Part shown: one piece after another, positions 1 to 11,923 of the stretch | Position numbering within the stretch: position 1 is the first letter of the stretch | Layout: the number at the start of each line of letters is the position of its first letter | The notes under the pieces: model-generated | What the model was told of the DNA's origin: nothing | What the model saw: only the letters and a program-made list of their open reading frames with translations | Database searches by the model: none | Source of the DNA: an uncultured virus (IMG/VR IMGVR_UViG_3300042016_000026) | Taxonomy: Duplodnaviria > Heunggongvirae > Uroviricota > Caudoviricetes > Schitoviridae | Virus record (IMG/VR): IMGVR_UViG_3300042016_000026 | DNA length: 64,000 nucleotides | Direction: 5' to 3' (one strand) | Program-made: the position numbers and the translations under genes

Positions 1-789
1 GACGAAGTTGTAGTTGCAGCGCAGCTCCATTTCACGCAGCAGGTAGGCGTCCAGTGAGTGAGTCACGTTGGCCACCAGCTTCAGGTCGGTCTTGGTACCC
101 TCGTTGATGTAATAGTCATAGGTGAACGTGGCGCCGTCCAGCTCGTCGACCTCGACGCGCTCACCCTCAACCTTCTGCATCACCTTGATGCGCACGTTGA
201 AGTTGTCCGGGCACACCCAGCGGTGTTCCAGCGCATACGGCTGCCATGCCAGGCGCAGATCCCCCAGCAGCTCTACGGCTTTCGGGGCGACTTCTATAAG
301 GCCAGCATAGAAGGCATCCAGCTCCGGGGTATCCTTGCCGAATATCTCACGCGGCTTGGCTTGGGAGCCGTACAGCGTGGTCATGGTGGCGTCTTTGGAG
401 TCTTGCCGGGTGACGATCAGATCGCCTTCCAGCATCGCCCCAGCGGCGTTGGTCACCATGGTGTACGCATCGTTGCGCAGGTTCGGGTCAATCAGGTTGG
501 TGGCCAGACAGCCCTTGTAGCACTTGGTCACCACGGACATGATGGACATGCCCGAGCAGGTGGCATCCAAGCCAACCATGTGGCCGATGGCTTCACCGCG
601 GCAGGCACGGTACAGGGCATTGACGGCCTTGAGGTACAGTGGACGTTCTTTACTGCTGGTTTCGAGGTAAGGCAGGCGGTTGAAGTTATCCTTCACCCAC
701 TGAATGCGTTGTTCGAACAGCTTCTTGTCGTCATAGCCGTTATTGGCGATATCGATGCAGATAAAATCGAATGCGGAATACATCTTCAT
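1..789 (-). CDS. RNA polymerase II subunit 2 (N4 gp16-like), runs off the window start
   Basis: Translated by hand (absent from ORF track): MKMYSAFDFICIDIAN... with T7-type motif A GLDATCSG, motif B RQDSKDATMTTLYGS and motif C ANVTHSLDA. Confidence 0.93.
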   Translation of the reverse strand, partial: MKMYSAFDFICIDIANNGYDDKKLFEQRIQWVKDNFNRLPYLETSSKERPLYLKAVNALYRACRGEAIGHMVGLDATCSGMSIMSVVTKCYKGCLATNLIDPNLRNDAYTMVTNAAGAMLEGDLIVTRQDSKDATMTTLYGSQAKPREIFGKDTPELDAFYAGLIEVAPKAVELLGDLRLAWQPYALEHRWVCPDNFNVRIKVMQKVEGERVEVDELDGATFTYDYYINEGTKTDLKLVANVTHSLDAYLLREMELRCNYNFV

Positions 790-811: not shown

Positions 812-1099
812 TTAATTAAGAATCATGTCGGCAAGAATCATTTCTTGCCCTGATGGATCATCATTGAACAGAACACAACCAATACGGATTTGTTTGTTGC
901 CCATCACCGTTATATTGCGAGCAGCATAACAATTACCGTTATTTACGATGCAAACATAAATCGCACCCAAATTGTTTGGTGCCCCGGGGTATATCTCGTA
1001 ATCGTCTAACGAGTACTTAGGCAAGTAGAAGACTTCGTCTTGGACGCTCTCTTCTACTTCACACTCGACAGGCTTATGGCGAATAAATAGGCGTGCCAT
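812..1099 (-). CDS. Small hypothetical protein, paralog of 1108-1398, C-terminal-motif family variant
   Basis: Starts MARLFIRHKPV after GGAGG SD; ends QEMILADMILN. Confidence 0.8.
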   Translation of the reverse strand: MARLFIRHKPVECEVEESVQDEVFYLPKYSLDDYEIYPGAPNNLGAIYVCIVNNGNCYAARNITVMGNKQIRIGCVLFNDDPSGQEMILADMILN

Positions 1100-1107
1100 T
1101 ACACCTC

Positions 1108-1398
1108 CTAGTTTAAAAGCATGTCGGCGAGCAGCATTTGCTGCACACATGGTTGATCTTCGAGTTTTGAACATAGAATGCGCACTAAACTCGTGTCTTC
1201 ATGTGAATGAAGACTTCGCGCCGCCCAAACTACTCCTTCGTGCACAATGCACACATAAACACAGTCATTAAGGTACGAATCCAATGAAATACCATTGTTC
1301 GTAAGCGATAGCCGTCGGACTACGAACACATGGGGTGCTCGTAGTCCCGGCTGTACATGACAATCGACAGGCTCATGCCTGATGAACAGGCGAGCCAT
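1108..1398 (-). CDS. Small hypothetical protein, paralog of 812-1099, C-terminal-motif family variant
   Basis: Starts MARLFIRHEPV; ends QQMLLADMLLN; start overlaps upstream stop (TAATG). Confidence 0.8.
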   Translation of the reverse strand: MARLFIRHEPVDCHVQPGLRAPHVFVVRRLSLTNNGISLDSYLNDCVYVCIVHEGVVWAARSLHSHEDTSLVRILCSKLEDQPCVQQMLLADMLLN

Positions 1399-1823
1399 TA
1401 CGGAACTTCCGAGATGCCGTCGTGCCAATCATTATCGGGATTCTGGCGCTTACGCTTCAGATAGCCCTCTTCATTGAGGATGAAATCCCCAATCTCGTAG
1501 ATGCTAAGCAACTCTTCACGATTTAGCGTGGAAGTGTTGCCCATGTCGGAAATGACCCCGAAAGTCTTGCCTGAGTGGCCGACATGATAAATCATGCCAT
1601 TACCACGCTGACGCCCGTTCAACGTGTACAGTTGCGCGAACAGAACAGGCTCGCCACTGATGTTGTGCGCGGAGGCCCACTCAGGGAGTGGACCCAGTTC
1701 TATTTCGAACTGCTCAAGTACTTTACGCGCAGTAGCTACAAGTTCAACTTGTTCTGGAGTCTGTGGTTTGACTAAATCAGCCAAAACCTTGAGCGCCAGA
1801 TACATCATACGATCAGTTTGCAT
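1398..1823 (-). CDS. Hypothetical protein
   Basis: ORF from MQTDRM with GAGGA SD. Confidence 0.75.
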   Translation of the reverse strand: MQTDRMMYLALKVLADLVKPQTPEQVELVATARKVLEQFEIELGPLPEWASAHNISGEPVLFAQLYTLNGRQRGNGMIYHVGHSGKTFGVISDMGNTSTLNREELLSIYEIGDFILNEEGYLKRKRQNPDNDWHDGISEVP

Positions 1824-1929
1824 AATTGAATCCTCTGAAGGTGCCACACTTGGTGAAACGCATCGAACCGATGCGTCTTGGAGTTTTGATCTCTTTTACT
1901 TCTGGTTTTGGTTCAACTTTCTTTTTCAC
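1813..1929 (-). CDS. Small basic peptide (38 aa)
   Basis: GTG start overlaps RNAP1 stop (GTGA); MKKKVEPKPEVKEIKTPRRIGSMRFTKCGTFRGFNYAN fills the gap exactly. Confidence 0.5.
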   Translation of the reverse strand: MKKKVEPKPEVKEIKTPRRIGSMRFTKCGTFRGFNYAN

Positions 1930-2855
1930 AACTGAAACTCAGGTGGAACGTCGGTAACGACTTGTTTATGGGAGAATTCAAGCATGGCCTTCTTGTAAGG
2001 AGCACCTTGAGTCGAGATGTGATAGCCGTTGGCGTAGATACGCCCACGTTTATCGTATTTGTGGTGCAAGTAGAACTTGTTGCCCTGCCCTGCCATCAAC
2101 AGGTAGAACTCATGCGATTGGCGCTTCTGGTTCAACCACATGGTTTGTTTCTCGGGAGAATCCAGCTCACTGTTGGGCATTTCCTCAACAGTGCTCAGGA
2201 ACACCAGATCGAGCGACAGTGCGACTGAATTCTTCGAATCCAGCACATCAAGGCACACATCGTCGCTGTGGTGACCTTTATTCAGGATCACCGAGTCCTG
2301 TCCGATGGTCAGGTATGGCGTATCCTTGTTATGGCGCAGCTTCTTCGGCGGATGCACCAGAGGTGGCAGGTAGGCGCAGTTGGCAATGTACTCCTGCAAC
2401 TGAAGGGACAGGGTGATGTTGCTGATGATGTTCCAGCTCCCGAAGCGGTTCGCCTGGGTCAAGTCGAACAGATCCGTCTCACACAACACGGCCGTTATCT
2501 CGGCAATGGTGGTGATACTGGACTTCTTGTCGTCCCAGCCCAAGACGCCGGCCATACGGGCTGTGAAGCTGGTGAACAGTTCTTCGTGCTGGCAGTAGGC
2601 CGAGGCCACGATGACATCAATAACCAGCTCACGCAGGTTCATGCCCCTCAAGCCAGAGATGCGGATGTTCTTGGACTCATAGCTGAAGGTCCGGGCGACC
2701 CACTCAGTGAGCAGTTCGACACCCTTATCCAGCAATGGCTGCACTTCTACGTCGGCAAGGACGTAGTCACGCATGTACTTGTCGATATGATGACGGGCAA
2801 AACGGTACTCGTTTGCACGTTGCATATCGTCGGTCAGCATAAGGGTAGGTTTCAC
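1926..2855 (-). CDS. RNA polymerase II subunit 1 (N4 gp15-like)
   Basis: T7-family DxRGRxY motif (YDKRGRIY); upstream of RNAP2. Confidence 0.92.
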   Translation of the reverse strand: MKPTLMLTDDMQRANEYRFARHHIDKYMRDYVLADVEVQPLLDKGVELLTEWVARTFSYESKNIRISGLRGMNLRELVIDVIVASAYCQHEELFTSFTARMAGVLGWDDKKSSITTIAEITAVLCETDLFDLTQANRFGSWNIISNITLSLQLQEYIANCAYLPPLVHPPKKLRHNKDTPYLTIGQDSVILNKGHHSDDVCLDVLDSKNSVALSLDLVFLSTVEEMPNSELDSPEKQTMWLNQKRQSHEFYLLMAGQGNKFYLHHKYDKRGRIYANGYHISTQGAPYKKAMLEFSHKQVVTDVPPEFQL

Positions 2856-2865
2856 GGATAATCTC

Positions 2866-3090
2866 CTAGTTTACGATCATTTCAGCTAAAAGAACTTCTT
2901 CAGGTACTTTATTGGCAATTCGCCACTGAAGATCACCACGATGCAGACAATGCCAACCTTTCGACCACGAAAATAAACCACGGATGAAGATTTGCCCTTT
3001 TGGGCAAGTCGCGGATATATAAGCAGTCTGCTCGCTGGCAATGTCCTCAACTTCAACACTATGGTCTGCCATCAGGATAAATAGTCGCAT
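2866..3090 (-). CDS. Small protein, C-terminal-motif family
   Basis: 74 aa, ends KVPEEVLLAEMIVN. Confidence 0.8.
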   Translation of the reverse strand: MRLFILMADHSVEVEDIASEQTAYISATCPKGQIFIRGLFSWSKGWHCLHRGDLQWRIANKVPEEVLLAEMIVN

Positions 3091-3097
3091 AAGTCTC

Positions 3098-3322
3098 CTA
3101 GACTAACATTGCAGCAAGTTTTATTTCTTCAGGGGCTTCAGTTACTGTTCTCCAGACAGCCCCGGTGTAGGTTTTAAGACTTCCATCAATAGCCAGCATA
3201 TATACCACTGAGGCGGTGCAGTTTTGCAAAACTCTAGCCCGCTGGGTTGCACCAAACCTTTCGGTTTCTTCAACCTCCACCTTGCCTCTAAAGATGTACA
3301 GCAATGTGCGCGTATCGACCAT
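3098..3322 (-). CDS. Small protein, C-terminal-motif family
   Basis: 74 aa, ends EAPEEIKLAAMLV. Confidence 0.8.
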   Translation of the reverse strand: MVDTRTLLYIFRGKVEVEETERFGATQRARVLQNCTASVVYMLAIDGSLKTYTGAVWRTVTEAPEEIKLAAMLV

Positions 3323-3329
3323 AAGTCAC

Positions 3330-3590
3330 CTAATTTGTGCAGGTATGCACGACTTGTACAATTTCAGGTAATTGCTCGACGTTAATCGGCAGAAGTGCGT
3401 CGAAGTAACTCATCACGTCACTCTGACGGGTGCCACGTTGTAGAACCCGCCATTGCAAGCCTTGAGGCTCAAGGAACCTGACATATAAGTCACCGAAGGG
3501 GAATTCAGAGGCTAGAACCGAAGAGGTTGTAGCCCAATGTTCTTTAAGCAGGCGAATCTCGCCTTCAACTACGTGAACTATCAGTGCCAT
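3330..3590 (-). CDS. Small protein, C-terminal-motif family (degenerate)
   Basis: 86 aa, ends QLPEIVQVVHTCTN. Confidence 0.75.
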   Translation of the reverse strand: MALIVHVVEGEIRLLKEHWATTSSVLASEFPFGDLYVRFLEPQGLQWRVLQRGTRQSDVMSYFDALLPINVEQLPEIVQVVHTCTN

Positions 3591-3903
3591 GTATACCTCC
3601 TACAAGTGCAAGCATTTTGATGGGTTCAGGCAAAGCCAGCACAGCAGACCAGCCAATCCCATCAGGATCGGCATAACCCCAACGGGATTGATCCTCCCAA
3701 TAGAAATAGTTGAAGTACCACTTCATTTGCAAAGAGTTTCCTTTAGAAAAACTCAGACGCATCTCAGGCCGGCCGCAGAATACACAGCCAGCCTTGTGTT
3801 TGTAGAACTCATCCCAATGTGGGCGTGAGTCTGCACTTTCAGTTTCAAAGACCGCTACTATCTGATCCTTGGTTTCGTTTAGGACTACCCAGATGCTGTT
3901 CAT
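3565..3903 (-). CDS. Small protein, C-terminal-motif family
   Basis: 112 aa, ALPEPIKMLALVGG near the C-terminus. Confidence 0.75.
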   Translation of the reverse strand: MNSIWVVLNETKDQIVAVFETESADSRPHWDEFYKHKAGCVFCGRPEMRLSFSKGNSLQMKWYFNYFYWEDQSRWGYADPDGIGWSAVLALPEPIKMLALVGGIHGTDSSRS

Positions 3904-4190
3904 GGCGCCACCAATTGCATCATCAGGATTACGTCAGGCACTGCTGATAAGCCCACAGCAGTGAACTTATGCCGCTTGTTTGTGTAACAATATTCGCCTT
4001 TGTACCAACGGCGTGCATCATCTTGCAGATACACCACACAGAATGGGTCATTTTTATGTGCTCCCTCGCATACTTGCATAAATGCGCTGAAAGAATCCCG
4101 AGAACTTACTTCGGGAACGTTATTGACGATCAGGAATAGAATTCCCATAGACACCGGACAAATGTCTGGTGCCCAAGCATAATTTCTCAT
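3900..4190 (-). CDS. Small protein, C-terminal-motif family
   Basis: 96 aa, ends AVPDVILMMQLVAP; ATGA coupling. Confidence 0.78.
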   Translation of the reverse strand: MRNYAWAPDICPVSMGILFLIVNNVPEVSSRDSFSAFMQVCEGAHKNDPFCVVYLQDDARRWYKGEYCYTNKRHKFTAVGLSAVPDVILMMQLVAP

Positions 4191-4441
4191 TCGAGCATCA
4201 TCCTCGTAAGTTTGACTATCTCCGGCACACGGTTAGTGGCCAACCACTCTTTGATCTGTACTCGCCAGATCAACCACATCTCGCGGTTATCTGTGGTCAG
4301 GTACCAGTGATACAGGGTGATTTCCGCGTTGACTGCGGCAGTGGCGAACATATATTCACCAATGCCATCAGCCACGGTGGAAGCCTCCGCGCTAAGCACA
4401 GAATCCTGCACTTTGTTGTATACGATGGTGATAGCTTTCAT
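4187..4441 (-). CDS. Small protein, C-terminal-motif family
   Basis: 84 aa, ends RVPEIVKLTRMMLE; ATGA coupling. Confidence 0.8.
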   Translation of the reverse strand: MKAITIVYNKVQDSVLSAEASTVADGIGEYMFATAAVNAEITLYHWYLTTDNREMWLIWRVQIKEWLATNRVPEIVKLTRMMLE

Positions 4442-4653
4442 GACAGCATCATCATGGCGACTTTCACCACTTCGGGTATATCTGCGTCTACAACGTAGCT
4501 GTACCCTTGTTTTTCAGGTGTCCACACTAACCATTGGGCACCATTGAACGAATACACGTCCATATCGTCACGAAGGTACGGAATGTTCAATATCTGAACA
4601 TCAAGCACCAGTTCCTGCGTATTACGGCACCAACCGACTTTCTTTATGCTCAT
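4438..4653 (-). CDS. Small protein, C-terminal-motif family
   Basis: 71 aa, ends DIPEVVKVAMMMLS; ATGA coupling. Confidence 0.8.
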   Translation of the reverse strand: MSIKKVGWCRNTQELVLDVQILNIPYLRDDMDVYSFNGAQWLVWTPEKQGYSYVVDADIPEVVKVAMMMLS

Positions 4654-4877
4654 GTCAGTAACATGTACGCCAAGCGTACAGCCTCCGGCAAGTTTTCAGG
4701 GCGGCACCATATGGCGTCATGCGACAAGCCATAGACGTACCAACGATCAGGCATTGCACTGTTGCCGTGAAACAAGGCGTAGACCGCCTCGTTCTCGTTT
4801 AAAGGTCGCCCGACCCAATGATCGGCCACCTGTGTCACCTCTTTCGAGTCGAGCAGGTACCGTGCAGACATGATCAT
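4650..4877 (-). CDS. Small protein, C-terminal-motif family
   Basis: 75 aa, ends NLPEAVRLAYMLLT; ATGA coupling. Confidence 0.8.
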   Translation of the reverse strand: MIMSARYLLDSKEVTQVADHWVGRPLNENEAVYALFHGNSAMPDRWYVYGLSHDAIWCRPENLPEAVRLAYMLLT

Positions 4878-5101
4878 GAGGCCACCAACTTTGCCAGACG
4901 AACTACCTCTGGTACCTCGTGTTCAGGTATTTGTTTTCCCATGGGTCTGTCGCCTTCAGGGGTAGCTGTGTAAATCCACCACGCCATTTTGCCGGCCCAA
5001 TACAGAGGACGGTAAGCAGAACGTGGTGAACCCGGCCATTCCTCAGAGGCGTGTACCACCTCACGGTCAACCGTGTCATAGACGAAGAAGATGGCAGTCA
5101 T
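4874..5101 (-). CDS. Small protein, C-terminal-motif family
   Basis: 75 aa, ends EVPEVVRLAKLVAS; ATGA coupling. Confidence 0.8.
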   Translation of the reverse strand: MTAIFFVYDTVDREVVHASEEWPGSPRSAYRPLYWAGKMAWWIYTATPEGDRPMGKQIPEHEVPEVVRLAKLVAS

Positions 5102-5349
5102 GAGGCCACCATTACAGCCATTCGCACCAACTCAGGTACCTCATGATCCAGATAGAAGATGACTTCTCCCGGGTACCGTGAAAGCACCCACGGCAGTCTG
5201 TGACCGTGGCGGTACTTGTAGACCCAGTGAGTGTCGAACAGGCTATTACTTACATCACCTGCATCGACAACCGTCTGGGTCGTGTAGTCCCACAGGACTT
5301 TGACCGTCTCGAATGGATCACCAAAGGGGTTATCCCCTGTGGCCATCAT
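5098..5349 (-). CDS. Small protein, C-terminal-motif family
   Basis: 83 aa, ends EVPELVRMAVMVAS; ATGA coupling. Confidence 0.8.
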   Translation of the reverse strand: MMATGDNPFGDPFETVKVLWDYTTQTVVDAGDVSNSLFDTHWVYKYRHGHRLPWVLSRYPGEVIFYLDHEVPELVRMAVMVAS

Positions 5350-5786
5350 TTTACTGGTTTCCAGACTTGGATGTTACCCGGCAGGGGATCGATGAGCCCC
5401 TTGAGCAGCCACTCCGGTTCGGTGTAGCCGGGCCACTCCAGTGCATAGGTCTTGCCACGGTTGGCCAGGGCCACCGCGGTCAAGTCATGCAGCGCCTTGG
5501 ACACCAAGCCGATGTTCACCCCGTTGCGGGGAACCTGCATGTGTTGTAGGATGCCCACCTTGCCAGAGCAACGCAGATAGAACTCGCCTCCGTCACCGCA
5601 CGTCTCCTTGATCCACGCTCCCATCTTCACCTTTAGGGTAGGGTATTTAAGACCCAACACCCCGGCCAGACCATTGAGCATAATAAGCTCTCCTGTCTCA
5701 GCCTTCAGCTTACTTCCTACACAAATGATGAAATGATCGACTTTGTCGAAGACTTCCATCATATCTCCGTAAATAATCTTGTTCAT
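5346..5786 (-). CDS. Possible degenerate macro-domain (ADP-ribose-binding-like) protein
   Basis: N-terminal IIYGDM and IMLNGLAGVLGLKYP resemble the macro-domain GD and MGxGIAxxxxxxYP patterns. Confidence 0.45.
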   Translation of the reverse strand: MNKIIYGDMMEVFDKVDHFIICVGSKLKAETGELIMLNGLAGVLGLKYPTLKVKMGAWIKETCGDGGEFYLRCSGKVGILQHMQVPRNGVNIGLVSKALHDLTAVALANRGKTYALEWPGYTEPEWLLKGLIDPLPGNIQVWKPVK

Positions 5787-5788
5787 GA

Positions 5789-6019
5789 TTAACTCCGTAG
5801 CATATTTGCCATTATGACAACGTCAGGTGGAGTAGCAGGTTTCCAGATGGCTGTCATGATCGAATTGGTGTTCATATAACACCAACCTAGGGTAATCTCA
5901 GACCAGACACGACAATCCGGGTAGTTTTTTGCCTCCCAGCGACAACCGTAAGTATCAGGCTCATCGCGAGTGATAACACCCATGAGTTCGCCATCCTTCA
6001 CCACATACCAGACAAACAT
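5789..6019 (-). CDS. Small protein, C-terminal-motif family
   Basis: From MFVWYVV; ends TPPDVVIMANMLRS. Confidence 0.75.
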   Translation of the reverse strand: MFVWYVVKDGELMGVITRDEPDTYGCRWEAKNYPDCRVWSEITLGWCYMNTNSIMTAIWKPATPPDVVIMANMLRS

Positions 6020-6023
6020 GGGT

Positions 6024-6398
6024 TCAACCTGCACAGAGCATTGCCACCTGAAGCTCAGGCGGCACCTCATCATGCGGAACTGTCATGAATGACGGACGAC
6101 GGTACAAAGTACCGACATTCGCATTCTTCCAGCGGATTTCACGCCAGACAACATCGTTGCCCGGCTTGAAGAAGAACACACGGCATTTGCCGAACTTCTT
6201 GAACGCTTGACGTGCGTATTCAGCAGCATCAAAGCGTTTGTGCTCATCAAGGTGCTTAACACCATCAGCGAGCACAACAGAGCAGAGAACTGCATCATTG
6301 ATGAAGGCACGCTTCACAACATGGTTTCGGGTGTTCATAGGATCATCCAAATCGTCGAGGGATAGTATCCCGGAGTATTTGCCCCGGAGTTTGCTCAT
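6024..6398 (-). CDS. Small protein, C-terminal-motif family
   Basis: From MSKLRG (ATGA coupled); ends EVPPELQVAMLCAG. Confidence 0.72.
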   Translation of the reverse strand: MSKLRGKYSGILSLDDLDDPMNTRNHVVKRAFINDAVLCSVVLADGVKHLDEHKRFDAAEYARQAFKKFGKCRVFFFKPGNDVVWREIRWKNANVGTLYRRPSFMTVPHDEVPPELQVAMLCAG

Positions 6399-6709
6399 AC
6401 AGGCTCCAAGACACCCAAAGGAGTCATGACATGGGTCATTGTGGTGCCAGTCCATACGCATGCCCGCATAATGCGGAACATAGCGAATGAATTGACATAT
6501 GCTTGCAGCTCTTCGAGGGATTCAGCATGGTGTATGACACGCTGCCAGCCAGAACCCTCAAGATGTTTCAGATCGACCGCAAGGCACAGCATGGCAGGCA
6601 CTGCGGTGTACTTCTCACTACCTTTCTGGCTTTGCACCAGCTCAACGAGCACATGCACGATGAATGCGAGCATTGTCAGGATCATCAGTACATCAATGGT
6701 TGTTTGCAT
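6395..6709 (-). CDS. Hypothetical protein with N-terminal hydrophobic segment
   Basis: 104 aa; VLMILTMLAFIVHVLV. Confidence 0.7.
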   Translation of the reverse strand: MQTTIDVLMILTMLAFIVHVLVELVQSQKGSEKYTAVPAMLCLAVDLKHLEGSGWQRVIHHAESLEELQAYVNSFAMFRIMRACVWTGTTMTHVMTPLGVLEPV

Positions 6710-6711
6710 GG

Positions 6712-7356
6712 TTATGCACCTTGTTGTTCAGAAATGAGGCGAAGGCGTTCGCACTCGACATTGATGCCATTACGGATTGACTTACGCACGCTAGGTAGCG
6801 CAACTTTGTCATTCAGCACGTTAGTCACGGCAGTCTTGATACGATCAGTACGTTCGTTGCTCTTGTCGTACATAGCGTACAACTTGTTGATGGTATCAGC
6901 CTGATTGTCGATAGACTTCTGCATAAGCTTCTGCATTTGCAGACGACCACGCTTGGCGCCCTTACGGACACCAGCAGTGTGCAGATTCTTAGCTTTCTGG
7001 CTTACGCTTGGGTCCAATGCTTCAGCTCTCTCGTGTGTAACCAGATGAGCCAGCATCATCAGAGGATTATCGCCATGTTTGTCGAAATCCCAGCAATAGT
7101 TGATGGTCATGACGTCAACTAGTGCGGCGCGGTATTTATCCGCGTATGCCCACTTAGAGTAGTGGCTTCTGGCGTTGTCTTCAGCATCCTGCAACAGTTC
7201 ACGCCATTTGGCATCCACAGCTTGCAGGTGGTCACGTTGCAAGGCATTGGCATGCACTTGCTGAGCTTCTTGACGGCAATAGCCCCACATTGCCCCTACA
7301 ACGAGGCAGAACACTGCACCGATAGCACCCCAGCAATACAGATTAATCATTTCCAT
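6712..7356 (-). CDS. Membrane-anchored helical/coiled-coil protein
   Basis: N-terminal TM segment (WGAIGAVFCLVVGAMWG) followed by a helical region. Confidence 0.75.
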   Translation of the reverse strand: MEMINLYCWGAIGAVFCLVVGAMWGYCRQEAQQVHANALQRDHLQAVDAKWRELLQDAEDNARSHYSKWAYADKYRAALVDVMTINYCWDFDKHGDNPLMMLAHLVTHERAEALDPSVSQKAKNLHTAGVRKGAKRGRLQMQKLMQKSIDNQADTINKLYAMYDKSNERTDRIKTAVTNVLNDKVALPSVRKSIRNGINVECERLRLISEQQGA

Positions 7357-7439
7357 GGTTTAAACTCCGTAAAGGTTCAATAAGATATAGATAGCTGCAA
7401 ACAGGCAGCAGAATTTGGTCATTTGTGCAGCAACGAGCT

Positions 7440-7757
7440 TTACCACGGGTTATTCCCCCGAGGTCCGCAGTTTGGCTGAGCTTTCGCCTTATAATGGCGA
7501 TTGCGCTTGTTTCGGGTCTGTTTGAAGTGACGCATGTCGATCATGTCGTGCATGCCCCAGATTTTGCCTTTACCGGCATGAACTGGTACTTGATACATCA
7601 CTGTCCCATCTCGCAGACCAACTGCGTAAACCGCAGTCATGTAGTCCTCAAGATGGGAGAAATCCATACCGGTCACAATTATTGGGTACCTCATAGGGCT
7701 CAACATACTTGCCTCCTGCAAAAAGGAAGGCCACCACCCCTGAGGGATGATGGCCAT
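7440..7757 (-). CDS. Hypothetical protein
   Basis: 105 aa with basic C-terminus. Confidence 0.65.
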   Translation of the reverse strand: MAIIPQGWWPSFLQEASMLSPMRYPIIVTGMDFSHLEDYMTAVYAVGLRDGTVMYQVPVHAGKGKIWGMHDMIDMRHFKQTRNKRNRHYKAKAQPNCGPRGNNPW

Positions 7758-7762
7758 CGGGA

Positions 7763-8095
7763 TTACGTCAGGTCGAGCATTGCTTCTTCGTCGGTGCGGG
7801 TTGGGTTGAAGCTGAATTCCAGCTTGCTCACCACTTCCGCCAGACGACGTGCTTTTTCAGCCGCGATCTCGTCAGGCTTGGTGTACTTCTCGTCGCCCGG
7901 GCGAGTCATACCGAGGTACGCCGCCAGTTGTTCGTGAGAGCGATTGCCTTCAACGAAACGGATGGCATCAACACGGATCGGCGCACCAGCTTTGGTGGCC
8001 ATGTTCAGGTTGAAGAAGCCGAGGGTCTTCTTCACGGAATTGCTGCTTTCAGCACGAGCAGGGGCAGCAGCGGTGTTTTTACGTTCAACAGCCAT
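7763..8095 (-). CDS. drc: ssDNA-binding RNAP II cofactor (LUZ7 Drc / N4 gp2-like)
   Basis: Resembles LUZ7 Drc as recalled (MAxxxKN...[FY]xNxxxxTxxG...TRxxEExxLDL); early-region position with a hairpin element just upstream. Confidence 0.7.
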   Translation of the reverse strand: MAVERKNTAAAPARAESSNSVKKTLGFFNLNMATKAGAPIRVDAIRFVEGNRSHEQLAAYLGMTRPGDEKYTKPDEIAAEKARRLAEVVSKLEFSFNPTRTDEEAMLDLT

Positions 8096-8147
8096 GGGAA
8101 ATACTCCAGAATAATGGAACAGAATGAGATTTTGTGGCAGATGATTG

Positions 8148-8167
8148 CCTTTACAGGGCCGAAGGCC
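8148..8167 (-). promoter_or_regulatory. Candidate vRNAP hairpin promoter
   Basis: Template (+) strand CC-TTTACA-GGGCC-GAA-GGCC; GNA triloop with C-G closing pair as in N4 vRNAP promoters. Confidence 0.6.
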
Positions 8168-8429
8168 GCTCTTGATTTACCAGCGCAGTCAGCGCTTTCA
8201 ACTCGAACTCAGGCAACCCGAACAGGCCCTTTTCAGGCCCGCTCATGAACAGCGTGGCTTCGAGGTACAGATGCCACTGATTGTCACCCAGCTTGAACTT
8301 GCCGATGGCATTACCTTTCTCGGTGAGATAACCGGAGCTATCCACACGATACAAGGGTTCAGATTCACCTAACACGGTGTAACTGATCGAATCATCGTCC
8401 AAATCGAACGATTGGTGTAAATGCTTCAT
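8151..8429 (-). CDS. Hypothetical early protein
   Basis: 92 aa, AAGGAG SD. Confidence 0.75.
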   Translation of the reverse strand: MKHLHQSFDLDDDSISYTVLGESEPLYRVDSSGYLTEKGNAIGKFKLGDNQWHLYLEATLFMSGPEKGLFGLPEFELKALTALVNQERPSAL

Positions 8430-8438
8430 GGTTACTCC

Positions 8439-8699
8439 TTAATTGGGCACAACAACGCCCAAATTGATGGTAAGCCCTGCACAAATGGCAGCAACGTACA
8501 AGGTATCGAAGGAAACACGCCATTCTTCACCACGGTTGACGAAACCGACGATGTTTTCACTGACTTTCATGATTTCAGCAGCTTTCTTCTGAGTCCACGA
8601 ATTATCACGCACAATCTTGCGCAATTCGCGGGCAATCAGATCTTTCTGGTGACCGAGGCACTGCCTTGCGAAGCAATTGGTGTGTTGAACCTGTTTCAT
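8439..8699 (-). CDS. XRE-type HTH protein
   Basis: WTQKKAAEIMKVSENIVGFVNRG...VSFDTL. Confidence 0.7.
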   Translation of the reverse strand: MKQVQHTNCFARQCLGHQKDLIARELRKIVRDNSWTQKKAAEIMKVSENIVGFVNRGEEWRVSFDTLYVAAICAGLTINLGVVVPN

Positions 8700-8881
8700 A
8701 GCTGACCTCCGGGTAATGGCTTCACATTGTCGATTGATCGCCATTGCTCAACCCCATTGTGCAAACGTACCCAAATTTGGTTATCACGCACGATACGACG
8801 CGTGTTTGCGGGTGGTGCAATCACAGTAGCGATCTCATCCCCGCTCACGATCACACGTTGGCCTATTAAGTAGCTCATCAC
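8696..8881 (-). CDS. Small hypothetical protein
   Basis: 61 aa, beta-rich, SD present. Confidence 0.65.
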   Translation of the reverse strand: MMSYLIGQRVIVSGDEIATVIAPPANTRRIVRDNQIWVRLHNGVEQWRSIDNVKPLPGGQL

Positions 8882-8984
8882 TCATACCTCTGGTTTAGGC
8901 TACCGCAAGGCCCCAAAAGGGGCACATAGCAGTATGGTTTTCATCGCCGAAAAGGGCAATTATTGCATTGTTAGAATATCGGTT

Positions 8985-9275
8985 TCAGAACTTGAACAAG
9001 TTCACCTTTACACCCTGCGAACGCAGGTTGTTGTACTCGTTGATCGCACGACGCTCAGCCTCAGCCGGAGTTGTGCAAGCAGACTCCTTACGGATCACAA
9101 CCAGTCGCAGATCACGCATTAAAGCCTGTTGGATCGCACCATCCTGCAATAGTGCAGCTTGTTGCGTGCAGGTGGTCATGTTCTTGGCCATGGAGTCCAT
9201 TTCAGTATGGGACACTGCACATTGCATGTCACTGGAGAAGTTCATAACACAGGATACAAAGTAAGCGGCTAGCAT
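8985..9275 (-). CDS. Hypothetical early protein
   Basis: 96 aa ORF with SD. Confidence 0.7.
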   Translation of the reverse strand: MLAAYFVSCVMNFSSDMQCAVSHTEMDSMAKNMTTCTQQAALLQDGAIQQALMRDLRLVVIRKESACTTPAEAERRAINEYNNLRSQGVKVNLFKF

Positions 9276-9277
9276 GA

Positions 9278-9724
9278 TTATTCCTTAATCGATTGCATGT
9301 AATCGCCAAGCAAGTTGGCAATCGTTTCATCACTGGTTTGTGGTAGGCCAGCTTCAGCAATAGCCTCATGAATCTCATCAAATGAATGAGCGCAGTGATA
9401 CGCCGCTTCAATGATTAGGAACATGGCATCTTCTGCCCGAAGTTTGGCAATCAGCCCACGATAGAACGTGAGTTGATAATGCCGAAACTCCGGACTGAGC
9501 ACAGCCACTTGTTGTGGCATGGCCTTAATCTCACGTAAGTGGCAGGCCAATGTAACGTGATTGCCAATAGCAACACGGATTACACTCTGTGCCTCAAGGT
9601 TTTCAACCTCGGAGATATACTCACGGCGGCACATCCAATCAAGGTGACAGCACATATACATGCTGCTGTCAGGATCGCTATCGAGCAGGCTTAGGGCCAA
9701 CTCAAGTGTTTGTGAAACATGCAT
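9278..9724 (-). CDS. Hypothetical early protein
   Basis: ORF from MHVSQ. Confidence 0.7.
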   Translation of the reverse strand: MHVSQTLELALSLLDSDPDSSMYMCCHLDWMCRREYISEVENLEAQSVIRVAIGNHVTLACHLREIKAMPQQVAVLSPEFRHYQLTFYRGLIAKLRAEDAMFLIIEAAYHCAHSFDEIHEAIAEAGLPQTSDETIANLLGDYMQSIKE

Positions 9725-9726
9725 GG

Positions 9727-9948
9727 TTAAACCCTCTTGATGGCACACTTGATAAGGAAAGTGTCGAGCTGATCATGCAGACGCTTGGCGTCTTCTTTGT
9801 TCAGCATCACACTGATCTTTTGGTCTTGGGCATTGGTCATGACCAAGGCAAACTCCAACAAGGGAGGTCGTTCCACGTCAGTTACATACGCAACTAACGT
9901 GTCCTTGGGATTAACAGTGCAATGGTATTGCTCACTGATCTGAGGCAT
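9727..9948 (-). CDS. Hypothetical early protein
   Basis: 73 aa, AGGAG SD. Confidence 0.7.
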   Translation of the reverse strand: MPQISEQYHCTVNPKDTLVAYVTDVERPPLLEFALVMTNAQDQKISVMLNKEDAKRLHDQLDTFLIKCAIKRV

Positions 9949-9962
9949 GGAGATAACTCCTA

Positions 9963-10190
9963 TTATTCCGTGAGGAATTGACGTATTTGTTGAACATCTT
10001 CGAGTTGAACACCGATAAAGCCACGCTCATGGATATTGGCGAGAATGGCCTCATCTTTGCTGCCATACATCACTAACATACAACCAACCTTGGCCAATAC
10101 CGCAGACGCTTCGTCCATGTCCTGCGGCCATGCACCAGTTGCTTGGAACTGCGTCATAACTTGAACAGCGCGATCACCGATAACAGACAT
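9963..10190 (-). CDS. Hypothetical early protein
   Basis: 75 aa, AGGAG SD. Confidence 0.7.
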   Translation of the reverse strand: MSVIGDRAVQVMTQFQATGAWPQDMDEASAVLAKVGCMLVMYGSKDEAILANIHERGFIGVQLEDVQQIRQFLTE

Positions 10191-10205
10191 GGATATAACT
10201 CCTAT

Positions 10206-10382
10206 TTAACTGGCATCAAATGCATTGTATTCAGCAGAGCCGTACCAAAGCACGATGTAATCATCAGACATGTGATTCATTTGGCTTAACTCTTCACGGT
10301 AGCACCAAGTACCACAAGGCCAGACAATAATGTCTTCGAGTGAGTGAACAGGAGCCGATTCAGCAGGTTTGAGCATACGCAT
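10206..10382 (-). CDS. Small early protein (58 aa)
   Basis: Hand-translated: MRMLKPAESAPVHSLEDIIVWPCGTWCYREELSQMNHMSDDYIVLWYGSAEYNAFDAS; AGGGG SD. Confidence 0.7.
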   Translation of the reverse strand: MRMLKPAESAPVHSLEDIIVWPCGTWCYREELSQMNHMSDDYIVLWYGSAEYNAFDAS

Positions 10383-10393
10383 GGGAATACCCC

Positions 10394-10573
10394 TTAAAGT
10401 TGATGAGCTACTTGCTCAAGAAGTGTAATGGCTTGCTGAAGATGATCAGCACGCACAATGAACGCAGAACCATCAGCATCACTAGTTTCAGGTGACTTAC
10501 CCAATGCTTCCGCTAATTGATAAATCATATTGGGTGTCACGATAGCAGCAGTGTCAGGTTCATAAAGATTCAT
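10394..10573 (-). CDS. Small early protein (59 aa)
   Basis: Hand-translated MNLYEPDTAAIV...QVAHQL; same AGGGGTATTCCCATG leader as the adjacent gene. Confidence 0.65.
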   Translation of the reverse strand: MNLYEPDTAAIVTPNMIYQLAEALGKSPETSDADGSAFIVRADHLQQAITLLEQVAHQL

Positions 10574-10602
10574 GGGAATACCCCTAATTGACTAATTGAA
10601 TA

Positions 10603-10623
10603 CCAATACAGGCCCGATAGGGC
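10603..10623 (-). promoter_or_regulatory. Candidate vRNAP hairpin promoter (variant)
   Basis: CC-AATACA-G-GCCC-GATA-GGGC, same CC-n3-ACA spacing. Confidence 0.5.
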
Positions 10624-10624
10624 A

Positions 10625-10852
10625 TTAACTCAGCATAGTAGCAAGCAGAATGACTTCAGGCACCTCATCATCGGTGATTTGTTTGGCACAAATCTTTGGT
10701 GAGTTGGGTTTAATACAAGACCACATAAAGTTTTCATTCCACCAGTAATAGGCAACACCACCGTAATCATGCAGTGCATTAATCACATCCTCATGCAATG
10801 CCATGCATTCGAACGCTTTAACACTGCCATCGGATAACAACATGTATTCCAT
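10625..10852 (-). CDS. Small protein, C-terminal-motif family (outlying member)
   Basis: From MEYMLL with GAGG SD; ends EVPEVILLATMLS. Confidence 0.78.
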   Translation of the reverse strand: MEYMLLSDGSVKAFECMALHEDVINALHDYGGVAYYWWNENFMWSCIKPNSPKICAKQITDDEVPEVILLATMLS

Positions 10853-11789: not shown

Positions 11790-11810
11790 CCCTCACATAG
11801 CCGAAGGCCT
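11790..11810 (-). promoter_or_regulatory. Candidate vRNAP hairpin promoter
   Basis: CC-CTCACA-TAGCC-GAA-GGCCT. Confidence 0.55.
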
Positions 11811-11902: not shown

Positions 11903-11923
11903 CCTGGACAGGGCCGCAGGCCC
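11903..11923 (-). promoter_or_regulatory. Candidate vRNAP hairpin promoter
   Basis: CC-TGGACA-GGGCC-GCA-GGCCC, perfect 5-bp stem with GNA triloop. Confidence 0.65.

Follow-up and report, generated by a model that had tools for sequence, protein, structure and literature searches.

The window analysed here is a 64-kb stretch (64,000 nucleotides) of the uncultured virus IMGVR_UViG_3300042016_000026. Between positions 812 and 10852, it carries 15 minus-strand open reading frames (ORFs) for proteins of 71 to 124 residues that are members of one family and that together occupy about 4 kb of this span. The array represents a lineage-specific multigene family of small, mostly acidic early proteins of Pseudomonas N4-like phages; most of its subfamilies (S00 to S12) have an isoelectric point (pI) of 4.6 to 6.4, and S06, with a pI of 9.4, is the sole basic one. 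The window itself belongs to an N4-like Pseudomonas phage of the Schitoviridae that is close to phCDa, a Pseudomonas phage of the same family (Shizishanvirus) with P. fluorescens as host; phCDa is its sole match among 50,697 phage records, with 80% identity over 16% of its length. At the matching place, the phCDa annotation lists small hypothetical genes flanking two RNA polymerase II (RNAP II) genes. The array lies on the strand and side of the RNAP II genes and is therefore placed in an N4-type early region, with transcription of the minus strand running from high to low coordinates. The order of the genes suggests that they are expressed early.

The sole strongly conserved stretch of the family is a C-terminal tail, xP[ED]x[VI][KR][LM]Ax[ML]h, with the variant GQ[EQ]M[IL]LADM[IL]LN in the two ORFs at 1108 and 812 (members are named by their lower coordinate). 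An earlier reading of this DNA, made from the sequence only, had listed the C-termini of the 15 ORFs, and all are present on the minus strand except that of the 3565 member, which contains the motif LPEPIKMLALVGG and then continues for nine residues. A regular expression written from the members matched 12 of 1178 ORFs (stop to stop, at least 30 residues, over the whole window), all of them in the array and 11 of them at 1 to 2 residues from the stop. This test is circular by construction, and therefore an independent matrix of 11 columns was built from related phages alone, using 42 tails from loci L005, L006, L007, and L009. The matrix places 13 of the 15 window members at 14.3 to 29.8 bits, while the top non-member reaches 10.3. 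In 20 shuffles of all ORFs, only 0.45 ORFs per 1178 scored at least 12 bits and none at least 15. The tail alone fails to set the 3330 and 6024 members (7.5 and 6.6 bits) above background. Full-length leave-one-out searches put 13 of the 15 members ahead of all 1163 background ORFs, and for nine of them E is <= 0.021. As a criterion of membership, the tail can be written xP[ED]x[VI][KRQ][LM]Ax[ML]h or GQxM[IL]LADM[IL]L at 1 to 2 residues before the stop; it is strong in 13 of the 15 members and weak in two.

Profile searches also recovered the family in related phages. A profile of the 15 members detects 12 phCDa ORFs at E <= 0.01, none of which was used in building it. Eight related IMG/VR loci, one of them phCDa itself, were fetched with the RNAP II small subunit as anchor, and each contains 9 to 13 members at the same threshold. 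Together, the window and these loci yield 106 member ORFs, 99 of them unique, which fall into 13 clusters of 4 to 9 members and 8 singletons. Each cluster occupies a conserved position in the array, and the 13 clusters are orthogroups that recur across the eight related genomes; the window holds two copies of two of them (4874/4650 and 1108/812). Tails are also present in other N4-like phages of the genus Littlefixvirus, on eight ORFs of 98PfluR60PP and seven of Littlefix, in the form xPxxhxMxxL[IV]Gxx as compared with xPExV+LAxMxx.

Among the 99 unique members, the tail comprises 12 to 13 residues and lies at the free C-terminus in 92. Its columns contain Pro in 91, Glu or Asp in 77, Lys, Arg, or Gln at position 5 in 73, and Ala at position 7 in 71. 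Positions 4, 6, 7, 9, and 10 are hydrophobic in 94 to 100% of tails, and positions 3, 8, 11, and 12 are variable; on a helical wheel drawn from the column counts, the apolar arc spans about 220 degrees. Such features mark a stable amphipathic helix in close contact with another surface, which could most simply be a Tyr/Trp core of its own chain (discussed below). The constraint acts on protein rather than DNA, because synonymous codons are used freely: the 15 window tails employ all four Pro codons, both Glu codons, four for Ala, and four for Leu, and identical residues share a codon in only 42% of cases. Pooled ratios of nonsynonymous to synonymous substitution (dN/dS) between the window and its relatives, taken where dS is unsaturated, are 0.14 to 0.25 for tails, 0.24 to 0.40 for the parts upstream of them (the heads), and 0.04 to 0.12 for the RNAP II small subunit. 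Thus, the family is fast-evolving, and the tail is its slowest part.

The extreme end of the tail obeys a different rule. The last codons read GTGGCCTCATGA (VAS-stop or start), GGAGG (VGG), or, in Littlefixvirus, (T)AGGTGC..ATATGA, which by their sequence are a Shine-Dalgarno-like element together with the ATGA overlap of the next gene. The final 2 to 4 residues, and the fixed distance to the stop, are therefore largely set by the ribosome-binding site and start of the downstream gene, and this accounts for endings such as LVAS, MVAS, and LVAP. Variability is highest at the last two positions, each of which accepts at least 8 residue types; the end itself can be N, G, E, S, P, T, Q, or D. The core motif, 9 to 36 nt ahead of the stop, lies outside the stretch used by the ribosome-binding site. 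As had been noted from the sequence, ten members are contiguous, from 5349 down to 2866, and most are coupled: ATGA overlaps occur at six of the nine junctions. The nine extra residues of the 3565 member, IHGTDSSRS, overlap the next gene by 26 nt, and their codons hold its GGAGG ribosome-binding site. Five of eight orthologues of this member, including those in L004, L005, L007, and L009, stop immediately after the motif.

Heads are far more variable than tails. In leave-one-out searches with heads alone, none of the 15 is significant (best E 0.39), in line with the earlier impression that they can barely be aligned. Comparison of the 13 subfamilies with hhalign, again by heads alone, pairs S02 with S10 at 68% probability and S00 with S10 at 49%; the other 76 of the 78 pairs fall below 25%. 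Head identity averages 0.224 between subfamilies and 0.206 when one head is shuffled. Within subfamilies it is 0.49, so that each head is conserved in its own line. The sequence-only reading had proposed variable heads on a constant tail. That description holds for the constant tail and the far more variable bodies; it does not hold for heads as independent modules, since they are one diverged scaffold. Evidence for a common scaffold comes from BLAST chaining, from two aromatic columns, and from the matching predicted topology of two models. Full-length BLAST (at least 60% of length) joins four positional subfamilies in one cluster and three in another. In an alignment of 116 sequences, one column is Tyr in 93 (plus 10 Phe), and another is Trp in 111 of 115; both aromatic residues are present in the variant-tailed 1108 member. 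The median spacing is 9 from Tyr to Trp and 21 from Trp to the tail. The pattern [YF]-x6-12-W-x15-29 before the tail, a spacing chosen post hoc after the data were seen, occurs in 85 of 99 heads versus 25 +/- 4 after shuffling (maximum 38 in 200 shuffles).

AlphaFold2 models were obtained for members of the two most different subfamilies. The 2866 model, with a predicted local distance difference test (pLDDT) score of 70, has strands at residues 3-8, 11-16, 33-37, 46-50, and 56-58 followed by a helix at 64-73, which is its most confident part (block means 87 and 78). The 812 model (pLDDT 82, predicted template modelling score 0.72) has strands at 3-6, 9-11, 23-27, 49-53, 56-66, and 70-77 and then a helix at 82-94. 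The order of elements is the same in both: a hairpin, further strands, and a terminal helix. The closest neighbours of the 812 model in VIA-align are single six-stranded closed barrels, which score Z 7.5 (4a5t_S; root-mean-square deviation 2.5, 70 residues), 6.8 (3f3b_A), and 6.6 (8hdr_A), values that, being below 8, denote a common arrangement by the tool's own rating. For the 2866 model, a wide VIA-align search reached a best Z of 3.1. Foldseek against the PDB gave no match at E <= 0.001 for either model (812 best E 0.019), and a small barrel with a C-terminal helix of the Sso7d/chromo-like kind, which was considered as a possible relative, is absent among the matches listed by VIA-align and Foldseek. 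A Kelch-blade or split-propeller fold, suggested by the top Foldseek rows for the 2866 model, was dropped at E values of 0.68 or worse. In BFVD, the 812 model finds the phCDa S05 orthologue (E 1e-9) and another phCDa protein (E 0.027, TM 0.5), and the ESM Atlas holds an exact copy of the 4438 protein and no usable look-alike. Complex prediction of the 10625 member as two copies (alignment A3), run without controls, returned scores of 0.05 and 0.02 against a mark of 0.42, which speaks neither for nor against a homodimer.

Together, the sequence and model data suggest, with a probability of roughly one half, that the family is a fast-evolving small beta-barrel scaffold closed by a keystone C-terminal helix and used as a set of early proteins, diversified to bind different host or phage molecules. 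The scaffold would consist of an N-terminal beta hairpin, a variable insert, and a three-strand meander that bears the fixed Tyr and the fixed Trp, and the amphipathic helix of 12 to 13 residues would close it. Pro and Glu/Asp would start the helix, Lys or Arg three residues past the acid could bridge back to it, and Val/Ile, Leu/Met, Ala, Met/Leu, and one more hydrophobic residue would form a wide apolar face on the Tyr/Trp core. The helix would stay recognisable because it supplies much of the core of a small protein, while strands and loops would drift or adapt until profiles lose the link between them. Because heads are retained within each of the 13 orthogroups from one related phage to the next, every orthogroup may have its own host or phage target in takeover or counter-defence. 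The family, its spread, the protein-level constraint on the tail, the aromatic pair, and the common predicted topology are shown, whereas packing of the helix on the core and the role of the members as binders of host targets are inferred. The sequence-only reading would have counted against itself a helix that is just a buried part of an ordinary fold common to the members; the predicted topology and the Tyr/Trp pair come close to this, if the helix is indeed buried.

Several observations weigh against this keystone role. The contrast between a readable tail and heads whose profiles scarcely connect is unusually stark for a single domain. In the 812 model, which is the better of the two, the helix is predicted with less confidence (block means 75 and 73) than the barrel (87 to 90). 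All structural neighbours of this model cover residues 1 to about 80 and omit the helix, and thus the barrel could stand without it. An apolar arc of 220 degrees exceeds what is usually buried by one sheet face, leaving room for a second interface. For every member, the binder role is drawn from gene context and sequence.

Several of these observations would suit a tail that is instead a free or half-buried peg by which all paralogues bind one common hub while the heads pick different targets, as the sequence-only reading had favoured; this is a tentative alternative, on the unlikely side. The hub could be a host machine, RNAP II, the 146-residue enzyme embedded in the array, or the paralogues themselves, in which case the array would amount to a collection of exchangeable adaptors or a single multi-subunit complex. 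Besides the stark contrast in conservation, the wide arc, and the absence of the helix from the neighbours of the 812 model, such docking or oligomerisation would suit a tail that is the one segment kept in all 13 subfamilies and in two phage genera and is under stronger purifying selection than the heads. Translational coupling at six of nine junctions would yield matched amounts of the partners, and the genomes share a stable, not a patchy, set of orthogroups. However, the common partner is purely hypothetical, and the conserved features of the tail suit an ordinary amphipathic helix that stabilises its own fold, the marks of which are an N-cap Pro-Glu, an i/i+3 salt bridge, and a small Ala at the packing site. 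The heads, moreover, keep the Tyr/Trp pair, a natural packing partner for the tail. A concerted change of tails across a genus was considered as a sign of a common partner, since a Gly near the end, encoded by GGT or GGA, is present in all 15 Littlefixvirus tails, but this codon lies within the ribosome-binding site of the next gene, which explains the change. In its most general form, in which all 13 orthogroups plug their helix into one hub (a host protease, a chaperone, a polymerase, or the embedded 146-residue enzyme) or the coupled paralogues form a hetero-oligomeric early complex, docking is rather doubtful.

Other explanations for a constant end are less probable. The terminal helices of MinD and FtsA insert in the inner membrane, and a terminal amphipathic helix of 12 to 13 residues that has a single basic residue and whose apolar face is broad could bring the members to the envelope in the same way; the genes at 6395-6709 and 6712-7356, which adjoin the array, have N-termini predicted by eye to be hydrophobic. 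Membrane targeting is nevertheless improbable. Known membrane-targeting helices are cationic, whereas the near-fixed acid and usually single base of the tail give it a net charge of about zero, most of the whole proteins are acidic, and it would be uneconomical for 13 conserved, soluble-looking paralogues all to need a membrane. A tag that delivers early proteins to a host AAA+ protease after takeover, which had also been proposed, would account for a tail that is hydrophobic and, in 92 of 99 members, forms the free C-terminus, and for proteins that may be needed only briefly. It fits poorly, and must be considered highly improbable: SsrA-like tags need defined terminal residues, and the conserved last 2 to 3 residues expected of an ssrA-like, ClpXP, or ClpAP degron are not seen in the tails. 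Their last two positions are instead the least conserved and follow the downstream gene's ribosome-binding site and ATGA overlap, the conserved helix lies 3 to 11 residues from the end, and the 3565 gene has been retained despite its nine extra residues in this clade. Finally, the conservation might be of DNA or RNA, through a nucleotide signal (ribosome-binding site, promoter, or recombination site) or recent gene conversion, given that the final 2 to 4 codons carry Shine-Dalgarno-like GGTGG, GGAGG, or AGGTG with the ATGA overlap and that the 4874 and 5098 tails are 75% identical over 51 nt. This is hardly credible for the core motif, which lies upstream of those codons and is, at the nucleotide level, largely refuted as a conserved element by the codon usage described above; the nucleotide repeat is confined to the closest pairs of paralogues.

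The members and the three context genes are listed in Table 1.

Table 1. Members of the family in the window, in the order of transcription, and neighbouring context genes (matrix, score with the independent tail matrix; leave-one-out, full-length search)
Coordinates	Strand	Feature	Residues	C-terminal tail	Matrix (bits)	Remarks
10625..10852	-	S00	75	VPEVILLATMLS	25.5	Leftmost member, near the early end of the genome; leave-one-out E 7e-4, rank 1
6024..6398	-	S06	124	VPPELQVAMLCAG	6.6	Length from ATG at 6398 (longer start at 6461 possible); detected by full-length profile; leave-one-out rank 1, E 0.14
5789..6019	-	S12	76	PPDVVIMANMLRS	25.8	Start uncertain (6034 or 6073 possible)
5098..5349	-	S09	83	VPELVRMAVMVAS	28.8	ATGA overlap with next gene
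4874..5101	-	S01 copy a	75	VPEVVRLAKLVAS	25.0	Leave-one-out E 2e-5; ATGA overlap at either side
4650..4877	-	S01 copy b	75	LPEAVRLAYMLLT	25.1	One BLAST cluster with 4874 member
4438..4653	-	S03	71	IPEVVKVAMMMLS	28.7	Leave-one-out E 2e-7
4187..4441	-	S11	84	VPEIVKLTRMMLE	28.6	
3900..4190	-	S04	96	VPDVILMMQLVAP	19.8	Length from ATGA-coupled ATG at 4190 (82 from 4148)
3565..3903	-	S07	112	LPEPIKMLALVGG plus 9 further residues	21.8	11 residues between matrix match and protein end
3330..3590	-	S02	86	LPEIVQVVHTCTN	7.5	Tail degenerate in this clade; canonical in orthologues of L006, L007, and L009
3098..3322	-	S08	74	APEEIKLAAMLV	29.3	
2866..3090	-	S10	74	VPEEVLLAEMIVN	29.8	Directly upstream of RNAP II small subunit
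1108..1398	-	S05 copy a	96	CVQQMLLADMLLN (variant)	20.0	Between the two RNAP II genes
812..1099	-	S05 copy b	95	SGQEMILADMILN (variant)	14.3	
5346..5786	-	Non-family gene inside array	146			Context; phrog_335 'phosphatase' match, E 1.4e-6
1926..2855	-	RNAP II small subunit (N4 gp15-like)				Context; anchor for fetching related arrays
1..789	-	RNAP II large subunit, start only				Leaves the window; phCDa 'RNA polymerase' at matching place

The 10625 member has orthologues in all eight related genomes, and extra tandem copies of it are present in L005, L007, and L009. L005, the most divergent relative, contains four tandem S00-like genes at its left end (2571-3568, plus strand), and L007 and L009 contain two each, compared with one in the window; copy number thus varies mainly at the end that enters first. 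The S06 subfamily is the only one whose head alone finds a Littlefixvirus counterpart, at 11.9 and 9.3 bits against a null with a 99th percentile of 7.7 and a maximum of 11.4 bits, which makes head-only orthology across genera credible, by sequence comparison, for S06 alone. The dS of the array is 0.55 to 1.7 in comparisons of the window with L002, L003, L008, and L004, versus 0.18 to 0.44 in the adjacent RNAP II small subunit, a 2- to 4-fold difference. This suggests either mosaic exchange of segments between related phages or mispaired orthologues.

Searches of larger collections have not revealed a described family, in agreement with the sequence-only reading. None of the 15 members matches Pfam-A at E <= 0.1, PHROGs v4 at E <= 0.01, or NCBIfam 20 and PADLOC-DB 2 at E <= 0.1, and a sequence profile search of the PDB gave a best E of 0.8. 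Against a library of 1.84 billion representative proteins, the family profile obtained 19 matches at E <= 1e-3, of which 18 are small phage orthologues; the other, P0013 (1447 residues), is a repetitive secreted protein and was judged spurious. A search of 5.8 billion proteins gave 62 matches, all on contigs of at most 76 kb and with no name beyond 'hypothetical'; indeed, 'hypothetical protein' is the name attached to a member in every database in which one was met. In 185,579 bacterial species genomes, one for each species, only a chance match of 15 residues was found. No ORF of LUZ7, Pa2, Holyagarpour, or phiA41 reached E 0.1 in a targeted search. Abstracts retrieved by literature searches on phCDa, Shizishanvirus, and the early genes of N4-like phages or Schitoviridae contain no description of the family.

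A few proteins resemble members without being detected as such. In Pseudomonas phage Pa2 (L015), two small plus-strand genes that flank the RNAP II small subunit (5542-5892 and 7747-8019) end in ...LVPREIIAQSLLFD and ...IPKELQALLTIYGL, which are tail-like at non-significant E values of 0.19 and 0.74; to judge from these ends, the family may have left a trace in Litunavirus. In phCDa (L001), the 92-residue product of the gene at 4864-5142 on the minus strand, which adjoins the S05 member at the place of the second S05 copy of the window, ends in ...HKWRDLINLWFMLKP. This end looks like a hydrophobic terminal helix without the Pro-Glu start, and the protein may be a member that has diverged beyond the reach of the profile. 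The weak BFVD match mentioned above (E 0.027) is also a phCDa protein of 92 residues; its identity with the 4864-5142 product is unconfirmed. Within the window, a 92-residue ORF at 8151-8429 on the minus strand ends in ...LPEFELKALTALVNQERPSAL, a hydrophobic helix started by Pro-Glu that is in another register and lies 7 residues from the end, and the family profile does not match this ORF at E <= 10.

The surroundings of the array provide further landmarks. The gene at 5346..5786, which has no Pfam match, overlaps the start of the next family member. In LUZ7 (ORF19) and 98PfluR60PP (gp84), genes annotated 'phosphatase' occupy the matching place, immediately before the RNAP II small subunit. 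The 146-residue product of the window gene may, to the eye, resemble a macro-type ADP-ribose-binding domain. Farther toward the early end, the minus-strand gene at 7763-8095 encodes 110 residues and matches phrog_6271 'toxin' (E 1e-8), and 'toxin'-labelled genes lie at the matching place in LUZ7 (ORF14), Littlefix (gp46), and 98PfluR60PP (gp78). Another early gene of the minus strand, at 8439-8744 (101 residues), matches the helix-turn-helix DNA-binding protein phrog_2339 (E 5e-6). A GC hairpin motif occurs three times, at 8148-8167, 11790-11809, and 11903-11922. Its minus-strand sequence is GGCC-TTC/TGC-GGCC and then (C/T)(T/A)TGT..AGG, which corresponds to GGCC-GAA-GGCC on the plus strand. 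One copy is inside the early region, the other two are situated upstream of its leftmost genes, and none is followed by a T-run. Phage N4 has three hairpin promoters, and by their sequence and placement, the three hairpins are candidate early promoters for a virion RNA polymerase.

Small ORFan early proteins that take over the host are known from N4-like and other lytic phages, for example N4 gp8 and T7 Gp2. The members of the array are like them in being small, often acidic, encoded at the end of the genome that enters first, and presumably expressed ahead of the phage replication genes. However, those known proteins are products of single genes without paralogues, while here there are 15 copies in 13 stable orthogroups. 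The 812 model also resembles one barrel of chymotrypsin-like proteases (Z of at most 7.5), but it is a single barrel of about 80 residues, without the two six-stranded barrels and the context of a catalytic triad found in those enzymes. Head-tail adaptor or stopper proteins (SPP1 gp16-like, PBSX XkdH) show a likeness in fold at Z 6.1 to 6.8 and BFVD E values of 0.009 to 0.06. Their genes belong to a structural module near the portal and tail genes, whereas the array is in the early region on the opposite strand and bears no sequence relation to them. In both groups of barrels, the C-terminal helix falls outside every match. The tails do not match the bacterial sliding-clamp-binding motif (QL[SD]LF-like, a Gln before a hydrophobic L-x-L-F pattern): a Gln is present only in S05 (Q-[EQK]-M-[IL]-L), and P-[ED] takes its position in the remaining 12 subfamilies.

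Sets of proteins with variable bodies and a constant terminus are also known: the T4 internal proteins carry an N-terminal capsid-targeting peptide, poxvirus ankyrin proteins a C-terminal PRANC/F-box-like element, and SspB-type adaptors a C-terminal ClpX-binding peptide. The likeness is a short constant terminal element on many different proteins, and it serves as an analogy for docking onto a common hub. These sets differ in that the bodies in the array are homologous and have no sequence likeness to those signals, and in that the T4 signal is N-terminal and cleaved. True members of the family are the unannotated phCDa gp38 to gp48 and gp52 (NC_048003) and the early hypothetical proteins of Littlefix and 98PfluR60PP. 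The protein family is new, although its general kind, lineage-specific multigene families in phage early regions, is known. What is unusual is that one terminal helix is held constant across 13 old paralogues and two genera.

It is chiefly in the early regions of lytic phages that unknown proteins of host takeover and counter-defence are found, and most of these are orphans that offer no handle for study. The array provides such a handle: a single scaffold, present in each genome in 13 conserved versions, some 100 natural sequences of it, and a tail by which every member can be recognised. If the helix is a keystone, the family would be a natural minimal binding scaffold diversified by a virus, and a set of probes for the physiology of the Pseudomonas fluorescens group. 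If it is a docking peg, these proteins would be the first case of phage adaptors with a terminal peg in common, a phage library of targeting adaptors and the counterpart of the poxvirus ankyrin/F-box families. In either case, the motif allows these genes, now all 'hypothetical protein', to be annotated in Shizishanvirus and Littlefixvirus.

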